From Escherichia coli (GTDB lineage Bacteria; Pseudomonadota; Gammaproteobacteria; Enterobacterales; Enterobacteriaceae), in the NCBI RefSeq assembly GCF_050920415.1, contig NZ_CP169310.1: a stretch of DNA of 64,000 bases; one strand, written 5' to 3'. Below, piece after piece: positions 54,001 to 63,000 of this stretch. Position numbers: made by a program. Positions within the stretch are counted from its first letter, which is position 1. Each line of letters starts with the position of its first letter.

Positions 54001-57000
54001 GGTGCAAATAATTTTATGATACTGCATATTCCTGATATATTCTCACACATATAAAGAATAAAGTATCACCACATGAATCACTTTCCCACATCAACCCGGA
54101 ATGAAAGAACTCATCACCTAATCCTATAATGTACAAGCCCCCACGCAAAAAACAAAAAATTCACAGGATCTTCAACATAATAAAAACATGATAACATAAA
54201 ACACAAAGCTAATAAAAAACAAAGACAGCAACCATAATAAAAAAGACGAAACAACACAAATTTACAAAATCAGCCTTATAACACTTCAACTTCCTACGGT
54301 ACAATCAGAAAAGAGGAGAATAAATTAATCAGCAATTATCATGTTACAAAAAACAACCATTAATGCCATACTGAGATATATTGATGAACACATAGAAAAA
54401 AAAAACATAAACATTCATATACTTGTTCAATACTCAGGTTATAGCCGTAGATACTTACAGTTACTCTTCTGTAAAGAGCTGGGCATTCCAATAGGAAAAT
54501 ATATCCAACGCAGGAGGATAACTAGGGCAGCGCTTCTGTTACGACTCACAAGGATACCAATTACATTAATATCAGAAAGACTTTGTTATGACTCACAACA
54601 AACATTCACACGAGAATTCAGAAAACATACAGGATACACACCTCTCCAGTATAGAAAAAGTGAAGAATGGACATTTAAAAACCAGACTGGCCACAGAGAC
54701 TTAAAAATATCATTACCCGTTCCACAAATTACAGCCTTACCCCAAATATTCTTTTCTGGAATATCTATTAACTATACAGGAAGAATACCACACAAATACG
54801 ACAACGCAAAAAAAAAATGGGATACAATAAACTCAATTCTTTCAAAAAAAACAAAGATATATGTAACAAATACAATATCTCACGGGAAAAAACCAAGTAA
54901 TGAATTCAATATAAAAACCATTATCCATACTTCAGAAGAATATCCTTGCACAAAAAACACCACATATCCAAACATTTATGCTCACTTCACATACAAAGGT
55001 AAAATGAAAGATTATGTTTGCTATGTAAATAATTTATATTTAAATGTTTTGCCTTTTTATGGTTTACAAAGAAGGAGTGGATATGATTTAGAAATCATAT
55101 CCACTCAACCTAACGGAGAATATTACTTTGAATACTACTTACCTATATACAAAGATTCTGAAGTGGCTCCTGAGATACCAGACAGTTGATGTGTATCTTA
55201 AAATAAGAGGTAGGCTCGGATATATGTCTAACACTAAATAGGTGCGTCCAATAGTAGATCACTCAGGGAGAACTCAGTCCGGTTTATGCGATCTGCTCAA
55301 TCGCTGAATATCCTAAATCACCAACCGGACTGAGCAATGCCGATCATAGTACCAATTCCCAGAACTCGAGTAGGCAGCCTGACGGCTGCGACTTGTCATG
55401 GTCTGCCATTACCGTTATAAAAACAGGTAATATCATTGTCTTTCAGTTAGTTATATGTCCCGTTCAGCTAAACCTCGTAAACGAAAACCCGCTCTTCAAA
55501 GAAGCAAACTTCCCCACTATGTCGTGAAGCTTCACGAAGATGACTTTTTTGACGAAGAAGACGCAGAAGTTCTGCACTTTGATAATTTTGACGATGCCGT
55601 TGAGTGCTGCGCTGACCTGGGTATTCCGTTCTTTGTGGATGCGGGAAACAAAAAGCTGGTCTTCTGGTTTGTACGTGTTGATGACGAAGGGTATCCGGAA
55701 ATAGCCCGCTGCACGGAGCGGGAATTTGCAACCATTTTTGCCGGTATCAGCGCCGGCGGCATGTACTGCCCGGAGTGTGGCATGGTTCACTGGTCAGACG
55801 GAGTCACCCCGCCCTTCTGATGCTTTCCCCGTTTTGCCGACATTTTTCAGCAGGGAAACCGCTGGTTTAACTGGCTGGAGAAACAACTGGAAGGTTCAGT
55901 GCGTCCGGTGGTGATTGAGTCGGTGACAAAAATCATGGCGTGCGGGACTACCCTGATGGGCTACACGCAGTGGTGTTGTTCATCACCGGACTGTTGCCAT
56001 ACAAAGAAGGTCTGTTTCCGGTGTAAAAGCCGCTCCTGCCCACACTGCGGGGTGAAAGCGGGTGCACAGCGGATACAGTATCTGCTGAGTCTGGTCCCCG
56101 ACTGTCCGTGGCAGCATATTGAAGTGGCACACTGAATTTGGCCACCTGAACAGAGGTGATATGCTCACCTCAGAACAACACAGGTGCTCCAATGAAAAAA
56201 AGAAATTTCAGCGCAGAGTTTAAACGCGAATCCGCTCAACTGGTTGTTGACCAGAACTACACGGTGGCAGATGCCGCCAAAGCTATGGATGTTGGCCTTT
56301 CCACAATGACAAGATGGGTCAAACAACTGCGTGATGAGCGTCAGGGCAAAACACCAAAAGCCTCTCCGATAACACCAGAACAAATCGAAATACGTGAGCT
56401 GAGGAAAAAGCTACAACGCATTGAAATGGAGAATGAAATATTAAAAAAGGCTACCGCGCTCTTGATGTCAGACCCCTGAACAGTTCTCGATAATCGGGAA
56501 ACTCAGAGCGCATTATCCTGTGGCCACACTCTGCCATGTGTTCGGGGGTCATCGCAGCAGCTACAGATACTGGAAAAACCGTCCTGAAAAACCAGACGGC
56601 AGACGGGCTGTATTACGCAGTCAGGTACTTGAGCTACATGCATCAGCCACGGTTCGGCCGGAGCAAGAAGCATTGCCACAATGGCAACCCGGAGAGGCTA
56701 CCAGATGGGACGCTGGCTTGCTGGCAGGCTCATGAAAGAGCTGGGGCTGGGCCATGTCGTTCTCGCCGGACAGCAGGCTCACCATGAAAGCGCTGGAAAT
56801 GGCATGGGAAACTCGTGGTAAGCCCGGCGGGGTGATGTTCCACAGCGACAGTAATAATGCCGGTATCAGTTTTTATCATCACTCTGTTTGCTGTTTAACC
56901 CGATTGGTGTGATTACTGATGCAGTGAAGACCTTCCCGCATCCTGACTCACACAGCGATCGACCCTTTGTGTCCTGCCCTGGACCTGTCGGTTGCCGGAA

Positions 57001-60000: not shown

Positions 60001-63000
60001 GACCTGTTTGCCTGGCTTGAAGAGCAGGAGCCGTGCTGTCCGCCCGACGGACCACTAAACAAAGCGATTAATTATATCCTGAACCGGCGCGATGAACTGA
60101 GCTGCTTCCTGAGTGACGGAGCCGTGCCCCTGGACAACAATATCTGCGAGCGTGCTATCCGCCCGGTCGTTATGGGACGAAAGGTCTGGTTGTTCGCCGG
60201 TTCACTGATGGCCAGAAACCGCGCAGCACAGATAATGAGCCTTCTGGAAACGGCAAAACGTAATGGTCTGGAGCCACATGCCTGGCTGACAGACGTCCTG
60301 GCGCATCTGCCGGAATGGCCAGAGGAGCGACTGGCAGAGTTGCTGCCCCTTGAGGGATTTACCTTCTCCGGGTGAGTGATACCTGTCGTCAGGTGTTCTT
60401 GCAGCGTGCCATAATCTGCAGTCGGGAGTTGAACGCCTGACGACAGGAAATGAGCCAGGCCAGCCACCACGCGGGCTGACAGCGAATCAGAACCTGAATC
60501 AGCCCGGAGCCATTCCCGGGGCTGTATTTCATCACCTGCCATCAGTACCCGTGTCAGTACTTCGCGACCTGACGCAATTACCCGACTCAGTTCTTCAGAA
60601 CCCGCCTCCGATACCAGCCTGGCGGCCGCCCCGGCGCAACAGAATAAATCAACCATCGTCAGACTGCGATCATTCGTATGCATCGCTGATGATGCGCCCG
60701 AAAAACGCGTCAATATGAGTTCGCCGGAATATTACTCTTCAGGAAAAACGAATCGTTACCGACTTAACCGGGGTGGAGATCGTGCTGCAAATAGTGCACT
60801 TCACATCATTGCCATCGGACGTTTGCGAACTGACGATAAAACGAAGGAATATGTCGCCAGACGAGTAGCGGAAGGGCATACAAAAATGGAAGCAATACGC
60901 TGCCTGAAGCGCTATATCTCACGCGAAGTTTATACATTACTGCGTAATCAAAACAGGCAGATCAACAGCATCCCGATAACGGCTTGACTCTTAGAAGGGC
61001 GTCCAGGGCAGTCATTATACGAGCAGGCAGTTCCGGCAGTTATTGTGGCGATACCAGATCACGCAGAGTATGAGCCGGCGCGGAAACTGCTGGGATAACA
61101 GCCCAATGGAACGCTTCTTCAGGAGTCTGAAGAACGAATGGATGCCGGTGGTGGGTTACGTAAGCTTCAGCGAGGCAGCTCACGCCATAACGGACTATAT
61201 CGTTGGATATTACAGCGCACTAAGACCGCACGAATATAACGGTGGGTTACCCCCAAACGAATCGGAAAATCGATACTGGAAAAACTCTAACGCGGTGGCC
61301 AGTTTTTGTTGACCACTTCAAACTGCGTACTTCGCCGGGGCGTTTAAATACTCAGTTTGAGTATCATACAATTTATCTTTCAACAAAATAGCATATAGCC
61401 AGCTTCAATCTTGCTGTCAGATTGAAGCATTAAAAAGAATGCAGCAAGATAGCTGCATTGTGGATTAATACCCCTGTTTTTCCTTATATGCCTCAACTGC
61501 TTTTTCCAGAACTTCCACCAGTTTCAACCCCTCACGCTCCGCGATATCCCGGATTTCTTGGTCGAAAGCAGGTGTGACACGTGTCGCAAATGCCAGCGTC
61601 CTGTTTGTTTTTCTGGCAGAACGACCATCGCGGCGGGTATATGCCTCGGTAACTATTTGCGTAACCATAGGGTCATGGTTCACAGGCGATAAGTACGCCT
61701 GCGGTATGGCAGAGACTGCCGGTGCTATCTCAGGCGCATTCAGGCTGGTAGCCAATTCGTCGGGGCCTGGGGGTACACCCAGCCCACCACGGGCCCTTTT
61801 AGTTTTAAGTTTTGATGCATCAGCCATTACTCTTCTCCAATCTTATCGATGAGTGCCTGAATAAGTTCATCTGCTCTCTCGTTTAAACCTTTATAACGTG
61901 TTTCTGTCACTGCGAGTCCTGAATTCATCGCTTTTCTGTATGCTGGCTTCTCAAAAAGGCATCCAGATAAAGTTTCATAACCCGCTTCACTGATATATGC
62001 ACGAGCATCCAGCTCTTCCGCTTCGGTACCTACCCGGCTTAAAGCGAAGACCAGTTTTGAACGTGGTACACCTTCTTTTACCAGCGCGTTGAAAACTTTA
62101 ATGGCCGGGACAAGATCGTCAAGGGAGGCCCCCGTTGGCTGAACGATAAGGTCAGCGACCTTAGCAATCTCTGAAGTCCCTTTGCTTGCACGAGCTGGGC
62201 CATCAAGAATGAGAAGGTCAAAATCGCCGGCAGATTCTATCGCCTGCCTTGCTGTTGAAAATACCTCAACTGAAGCAACCGGAGACAAACCCGCTGACAG
62301 ACGTCGACGATGCCACTCAGCACTCGTTGCCTGTTCCAGGTCGAGGTCAGCTAATTTTGTTTTGATGCCACAGGCGGATGCTTCACGTGCTAACGCTCTC
62401 GCTTTAGTGCTTTTGCCCACACCACCTTTCTGGGAAATAAAACCAACTATCCAGGCCATTTAGCCCCCTTCACTTGCTGCTATCTTGCAGCAAACATAAA
62501 TATAAACCTGATTGAGATTAGGAAAAGTAACTCTTTCCGCACAAGATGGCTTGAAGCAAGATTACAGCAATCAAAAATCTAGCAGCAAGATTAAATCATG
62601 CCATTCAGAAGAGTACAGAAATTGACAGCCGAATACTTCTGTCACGTTCACAACAATGAAAGCTACAAGCGTTATGCAATCTTGCTGCAATACTAAAAGA
62701 GAACTCATTCAGGATTGCATCTACATACCTGCACGATTGCAGCAAGCATGCAGGTAGTATAACATGAGTTGAGCGTTATACTATACCATCAGTAGAGCAC
62801 TGTCTGGAAACTATGTCATTATAAGTGCTGGCGTTTGCGTATAGCATGATAGCAGCAATCTATTTTATTGCAGCTATCATGCTGCAATGTTACTGTCAGA
62901 ATCAGGCAGCGCTCGCCGAAGCGATGTAACCGAGCGTAGCGAACGAACTGGCGAGGAAATGTTCCGGCAGATACTTATGTAAACCTCACGGGCTTTGACT

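Follow-up and report, generated by a model that had tools for sequence, protein, structure and literature searches.

The window analysed here, a stretch of 64,000 nucleotides from Escherichia coli (contig NZ_CP169310.1, assembly GCF_050920415.1), carries between 56120 and 61320 three insertion sequences (ISs) lying one inside another: an IS911 that contains ISEc21, an element of the IS110 family, which in turn contains an element of the IS66 family. We put at about 95% the probability that this nest arose by one insertion after another on a large plasmid of E. coli, an RNA-guided insertion of ISEc21 into IS911 being followed later by insertion of the IS66-family element into ISEc21. This reading draws on observed element boundaries, family memberships, a target duplication, an ISEc21 site that recurs at other loci, and matches between that site and guide segments of ISEc21. 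The same nesting order had been proposed in an earlier note made from the sequence alone, and alignment to reference copies confirms it. The parts of the nest are listed below, with gene labels from the Prokaryotic Genome Annotation Pipeline (PGAP).

56120-56849, plus strand: left part of IS911, with the left inverted repeat from 56120; labelled 'transposase, frameshifted, incomplete'
56850-57130, plus strand: non-coding left end of ISEc21, 281 nt before the ATG at 57131; guide RNA (seekRNA/bridge RNA) region
57131-57963, plus strand: ISEc21 transposase gene, codons 1 to about 278, with a premature stop at Q256 and truncated by the IS66-family insertion; labelled 'IS110 family transposase, internal stop, incomplete'
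57956-57963: left copy of the target duplication TCTTCAGG, ISEc21 nt 1107-1114
57964-60735, plus strand: IS66-family element, with left inverted repeat 57964-57975, tnpA 58053-58382, tnpB 58369-58749, tnpC 58792-60375 and right inverted repeat 60724-60735
60736-60743: right copy of the target duplication TCTTCAGG
60744-61003, plus strand: right part of ISEc21, encoding the transposase C-terminus (stop 60985-60987) and closing with the right end ...AGAAGGGCGTC, placed by blastn and by the junctions at eight loci
61004-61320, plus strand: right part of IS911, with the orfB C-terminus from codon Q of H-S-D/Q-G-S (the slash marks the point of ISEc21 insertion) and the right inverted repeat to 61320; labelled 'integrase core domain-containing protein, missing N-terminus'

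Boundaries were set by comparing empty with filled sites, not by repeat statistics, and the sequence comparisons place the nest boundaries and the duplication far above chance. The IS911 reference was an intact PGAP-annotated copy of 1248 bp (L006:301-1548; L numbers are our handles for loci), used for blastn and global alignment. The ISEc21 reference was the copy on pMAR2 of strain E2348/69, named by PGAP 'IS110-like element ISEc21 family transposase'. Proteins were assigned to families with NCBIfam profiles and their curated cut-offs, and genome counts refer to a set of 5426 complete E. coli genomes. A repeat search with 8-nt seeds was silent on the IS66 inverted repeats, whose mismatch at position 6 interrupts the seed, and on the 8-bp duplication, which is under its minimum length; the inverted repeats and the duplication were then checked directly.

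ISEc21 occupies 56850-61003 of IS911, the IS66-family element included, and orfB of IS911 is interrupted by these 4154 bp, in agreement with the roughly 4.1 kb first estimated. Without the IS66-family element and one duplication copy, the insert (56850-57963 plus 60744-61003) measures 1374 bp and aligns to the pMAR2 ISEc21 with 13 mismatches and no gaps. By blastn, ISEc21 nt 1-1114 correspond to 56850-57963 and nt 1107-1374 to 60736-61003, the 8-nt overlap being the duplication. The layer is called ISEc21 because copies given that name by PGAP match the insert at 99% identity. The intact pMAR2 transposase (358 aa) reaches 197.9 bits with the profile NF033542 (cut-off 140), 'IS110 family RNA-guided transposase', and the reconstituted open reading frame (ORF) of the window differs from it at 7 of 358 residues, one of these being the stop at codon 256 (CAA>TAA, 57896-57898). 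Elements of the IS110 family have no terminal inverted repeats, make no target duplication and carry a long non-coding region upstream of the transposase gene (tnp). The ISEc21 span cloned by Siddiquee et al. in 2024 was 1574 bp including 100 bp of flank on each side (PMC11187229), which therefore leaves an ISEc21 of 1374 bp, the same as here.

ISEc21 is inserted between IS911 nt 931 and 932, within CAC AGC GAY / CAG GGC AGT. These codons, H-S-D/Q-G-S, include the second Asp of the DDE triad, and three other hosts from the IS3 family are split at the same place. Junctions were compared at eight loci.

Window, L003, L004 and L005: ISEc21 of 98.6-100% identity; host IS911
L010: ISEc21 variant of 92.6% identity; host a 99% IS911
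L009: ISEc21 of 99.7% identity; host an IS911 relative of 88% identity
L007 and L008: ISEc21 variant of 92.6% identity; two IS3-family hosts that share only the motif region with IS911

The insertion nucleotide is identical in all eight, in each case as a simple insertion between GAY and CAGGG. Because this one point recurs across different hosts and element variants, the junction sequences identify the loci as several independent insertions of ISEc21 at a single nucleotide. The right junction always reads GTC/CAGGG and the left either GAT/AGTAAT or GAC/AGTAAT; three of the eight loci (the window, where it is 56849, L005 and L007) have C as the left-junction base, and the remaining five have T, as does empty IS911. 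A duplicated 2-nt core in the style of IS621 was considered for these junctions and dropped, because no dinucleotide is common to both, in agreement with the duplication-free insertion published for ISEc21 (PMC11187229).

Segments of the non-coding left end match this target on both strands. CACAGCGATC (56951-56960, 10 nt) equals the top strand to the left of the insertion point, and the right-junction sequence GTCCAGGGCAG has its complement in CTGCCCTGGAC (56974-56984), a bottom-strand match of 8-11 nt; both matches were reached in 0 of 2000 shuffles. Further along, AGAAGGGC (57044-57051) matches the right end of ISEc21 itself and GTTACTGT (57067-57074), the reverse complement of ACAGTAAC, matches its left end, a pair that would fit a second, donor-type loop. 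A small GAC-loop-GUC hairpin lies between the members of each target or donor pair. Siddiquee et al., who used ISEc21 as an IS110-family model, reported that it targets the second-D codons of IS3-family members, that its upstream non-coding region yields a 74-nt seekRNA which matches both target strands and is required, that insertion occurs without duplication, that targeting can be reprogrammed, and that guide RNA and transposase act in trans on mini-elements (PMC11187229). A two-loop bridge RNA is a published concept for IS110 elements (PMC11208160). The entry of ISEc21 into IS911 is a programmed, recurrent, RNA-guided insertion of this already published kind and not a random one. As a side observation, joining the right end GGCTTGACTCTTAGAAGGGCGTC (60976-61003) to the left end AGTAATAATG (56850-56860) would give a hypothetical circle junction with TTGACT, 16-17 nt and TAATAA or AATAAT, a sigma-70-like promoter directed toward the guide RNA and tnp, as has been reported for the ISEc21 minicircle.

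The innermost element spans 57964-60735, exactly the 2772 bp first given for it. The terminal inverted repeats stood as described: GTAATGTTCCGG and the reverse complement GTAATATTCCGG agree at 11 of 12 positions, starting GTAA, with weaker similarity continuing to about 27 nt. Its proteins match the NCBIfam profiles for TnpA (NF047593, 45.1 bits, cut-off 28), TnpB (NF033819, 113.6 bits, cut-off 50) and TnpC (NF033517, 437.9 bits, cut-off 180). The IS66 family comprises tnpA-tnpB-tnpC elements such as ISEc8, IS679 and IS682; PGAP gives the present element no specific IS name. The full-length 2772-bp unit was found in 190 of the 5426 genomes, and copies at four independent sites were used for comparison.

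L002: intergenic, downstream of asrC and before a universal stress protein gene in strain SCU-308; duplication ATAAATGC
L012: istA gene of ISEc12; duplication GTTGAACG
L013: IS630-family gene; duplication ACTTTACC
L014: hemagglutinin-repeat gene; duplication GTTTGCCA

The direct repeat reported for the window copy was found at both places, 57956-57963 and 60736-60743. It is judged genuine from these alignments because TCTTCAGG is single in uninterrupted ISEc21 copies and because each of the four other IS66 copies, with ends identical to those of the window copy, has its own 8-bp duplication. It covers codons S276-S277-G278 (VPV-SSG-KTN) of the ISEc21 transposase, the S-S-G split that the earlier note had described for a then unnamed IS110-family gene. 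A conserved SG motif lies in the C-terminal fold of these transposases (PMC11187229); insertion at the S-S-G codons is nevertheless regarded as coincidence, because no such specificity is seen at the other four sites. Two of those four lie within ISs (istA of ISEc12 in L012 and an IS630-family transposase gene in L013), so that this element is commonly nested in other ISs.

The four comparison copies are identical to one another, whereas 4 positions set the window copy apart from them; three of these are TnpC missense changes (M58I, G475R and R505H). The IS66-family genes had been described as intact, which holds for their open reading frames, with the TnpC changes as a reservation. Downstream of tnpC is a 360-bp non-coding tail (60376-60735) with a 17-nt inverted repeat, 94% complementary, at 60382-60398 and 60431-60447. 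PGAP calls a 47-aa reverse-strand ORF ('hypothetical protein') in the tail, which is kept in all copies; neither this ORF nor a 213-aa reverse-strand ORF at 60072-60713 has an NCBIfam match, and both are treated as non-genes or unknown.

The distribution of the layers gives the order of events. ISEc21 is flanked by IS911 sequence (300 bp per side) in 309 genomes, and the exact ISEc21::IS66 junction occurs in only 14, always on a plasmid of 167-225 kb; the isolates come from US food, crow and Japanese cattle. On these counts the IS66 insertion came later and is the rarer of the two. Over its 5.4 kb the region matches pCFSAN004181P of E. coli strain GB089 (ground beef) and a plasmid from strain 09-00049 (lettuce) at 100% identity, and two more plasmids match it at 99.6-99.7%, each with one extra IS30. 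In the crow-isolate plasmid p1RM9088 the same nest is present, with the 200-bp deletion in IS911, the Q256 stop, the IS66 insertion and an IS30 directly after the IS911 frameshift motif, whereas the sister plasmid pCFSAN004179G (L005) has IS911::ISEc21 without the IS66-family element, the deletion, the stop codon or IS30. From these shared and absent lesions it follows that ISEc21 entered IS911 first. According to the comparison, three later changes fell, in whichever order, within one plasmid lineage (the IS66 insertion, the Q256 stop and the loss of 200 bp from IS911), and IS30 came last, in one branch.

The outer layer was delimited by alignment to the intact IS911, which gives an extent of 56120-61320. 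Reference nt 1-632 align to 56120-56750 (98.6%), nt 826-930 to 56744-56848 (99.0%) and nt 932-1248 to 61004-61320 (99.4%). The right end is exactly 61320, as the earlier note had it, but the left end, which begins TGAAGTGGCACAC..., lies at 56120, 9 bp upstream of the position it had assigned (56129); in the same check against references the direct repeat and the remaining boundaries hold. Both terminal inverted repeats start TGAAGTGG, are identical in the first nucleotides (8/8) and have a GGCCACC block in common. In IS911, a member of the IS3 family, orfA and orfB are joined by an A6G programmed -1 frameshift to give the DDE transposase OrfAB. Here orfA lies at 56192-56479 (95 aa) and contains the A6G motif (56443-56449). 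With NF033516, OrfA by itself reaches 56 bits, below the cut-off of 160 bits set for the whole protein, and orfB, destroyed by a deletion, frameshifts and the insertion, is present only as remnants. The 200-bp deletion falls inside the N-terminal part of orfB with its junction at 56744-56750, where there is 7-nt microhomology, and 1-nt deletions occur at reference nt 354 and 521. The inactivation of both host elements noted earlier is thus borne out, with these deletions and the Q256 stop as additional lesions. Elsewhere in the window, 18 kb upstream and inverted relative to IS911, a 123-bp remnant of an IS911 right end is found at 38361-38483 on the minus strand (reference nt 1123-1245, 99% identity, the final 3 nt missing) and may be left over from IS911-mediated rearrangements on the plasmid.

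In the mechanism that we propose, the ISEc21 transposase would be guided by a small RNA from the element's own non-coding left end, and this RNA would pair with both DNA strands encoding H-S-D/Q-G-S of IS3-family transposases. ISEc21 would thereby land between IS911 nt 931 and 932 without target duplication and destroy orfB. In one lineage the 2772-bp IS66-family element would later have entered ISEc21 through a staggered cut, giving the 8-bp duplication TCTTCAGG that is typical of its family and splitting the ISEc21 transposase at S276-S277-G278; in the same lineage ISEc21 would have acquired its nonsense codon and IS911 would have lost 200 bp.

The presence of ISEc21 in IS911 could instead reflect one chance event, its wide occurrence then being due to vertical or horizontal spread of a single composite. 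Many copies do share ISEc21 and IS911 flanks that are about 99% identical, a pattern that such spread could by itself produce, but the same point is used in hosts whose flanks are unrelated beyond the motif (L007 and L008), by the 92.6% variant in a 99% IS911 (L010) and by a 99.7% ISEc21 in the 88% relative (L009). As the element's own segments also match both target strands, and as targeted transposition has been demonstrated by experiment (PMC11187229), a single chance event is highly improbable. That the nest is an artefact of assembly, with repeated ISs collapsed or mis-joined, is a concern because IS-rich plasmid regions are easily mis-assembled and E. coli carries each of the three elements in multiple copies. 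The probability of this is close to negligible, however, since several independent projects (US food, crow and Japanese bovine) yielded the identical junction, in 14 complete genomes in all, and since every junction coincides with an exact element end and shows the duplication, or the lack of one, expected there.

The nest of 5.2 kb might also still be mobile, the IS911 ends, or the ISEc21 ends with the guide RNA, being used in trans by transposases of other copies. Both IS911 inverted repeats, both ISEc21 ends, the target flanks and the guide segments are intact, the ISEc21 guide RNA and transposase work in trans on mini-elements (PMC11187229), and in the sister plasmid the composite lies in the opposite orientation at the same breakpoint in an IS91-family fragment, a sign that it has been moved or flipped. 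Homologous recombination between inverted IS911 copies would explain that inversion equally well, and the nested form is limited to one plasmid lineage, always in the same place and with no second location seen; continued mobility of the whole is accordingly very unlikely.

Several points weigh against the reading of stepwise insertion with RNA guidance. A simple insertion of IS911 should be flanked by a 3-bp target duplication, and none is present (TAT vs AAC); for this reason IS911's own arrival is not reconstructable as a clean event. The missing duplication bears on the history of the window copy and not on its identity as IS911. The IS91-family fragment (56060-56119) adjoins the left end of IS911 in the window and, as the exact reverse complement, the right end in pCFSAN004179G (L005:4195-4254). 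The arrangement indicates that the IS911::ISEc21 composite, or an adjacent segment, is inverted in one plasmid relative to the other, and a later inversion or recombination of this kind accounts for the lost IS911 duplication. Target base nt 931 is either polymorphic or was altered after insertion, since the window has C and most copies T. An Rfam scan of 56000-61400 at E <= 1 gave no match and no curated guide-RNA model, and a single-sequence fold of the 286-nt ISEc21 left end was just slightly better than shuffled sequence (z = -1.87) and by itself showed no two-loop architecture; the guide assignment draws on the sequence matches and the published experiments. Finally, the activity of the window IS66 copy is not assured, in view of the TnpC changes, even though its frames are open.

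Either a plain synonymous polymorphism (GAT/GAC) or a recombination footprint may underlie the T/C difference at the left junction. In the latter case recombination would have taken place between non-identical core dinucleotides, target AT and donor TC, with resolution of the heteroduplex, the right junction remaining constant at GTC/CAGGG; natural ISEc21 insertions would then record the position of strand exchange. More broadly, ISEc21 could be kept in E. coli as a selected 'IS-killing IS', for disabling IS3-family transposases, and not as a neutral parasite. Taken together, these two ideas are speculative and have little probability.

Another insertion into IS911 recurs as well. IS30 at IS911 reference nt 333/334, just past the A6G motif, is found across several unrelated replicons (L003:680/1902, L009:708, L010:703 and L011:954/2176), and IS911 with IS30 was seen in pMAR2, RM9088 p1 and strains MS20674 and H9. 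The insN-insI-insO arrangement of K-12 is likewise an IS911 interrupted by IS30.

Each layer follows the published behaviour of its family, and the nest is a known, ordinary structure. Its value is chiefly for annotation: PGAP presents three intact IS66-family genes surrounded by a row of transposase pseudogenes, and exact boundaries can now be given for three pseudogene fragments that are labelled only generically. The relative order of events serves as a marker for a single lineage of large E. coli plasmids, the nest being carried by 14 of the 5426 genomes. The nest is also a clean natural case of the published RNA-guided targeting of IS3-family genes by ISEc21, and adds IS911 to the hosts named in that work (PMC11187229). 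The IS66-family element is probably active in these strains, given its wide distribution and the near identity of its copies at many sites, and it may merit an ISfinder entry if it lacks one.

The window copy is the same element as the ISEc21 of PMC11187229, with 13 nt differences in 1374 bp from the pMAR2 copy and unchanged upstream guide segments, but it is dead, through the Q256 stop and the 2.8-kb insertion at the S-S-G codons, and its host is IS911, whereas ISCfr6, ISEc92 and ISEc93 were the hosts exemplified there. The segment pair AGAAGGGC/GTTACTGT resembles the donor-binding loop of an IS621-type bridge RNA more than it does the shorter seekRNA description. IS911 itself is 98.6-99.4% identical to the reference over all kept segments, with both inverted repeats, orfA and the A6G motif retained; it differs in its 200-bp and single-base deletions, the splitting of orfB by 4154 bp and the lack of a 3-bp duplication. 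The IS911-with-IS30 arrangement is another recurrent IS-in-IS911, but the window copy is without IS30. The innermost element resembles the IS66 family in its three genes, the tnpA/tnpB overlap, the GTAA inverted repeats and the 8-bp duplication, while having no specific PGAP name and, after tnpC, a 360-bp tail with a 17-nt inverted repeat.

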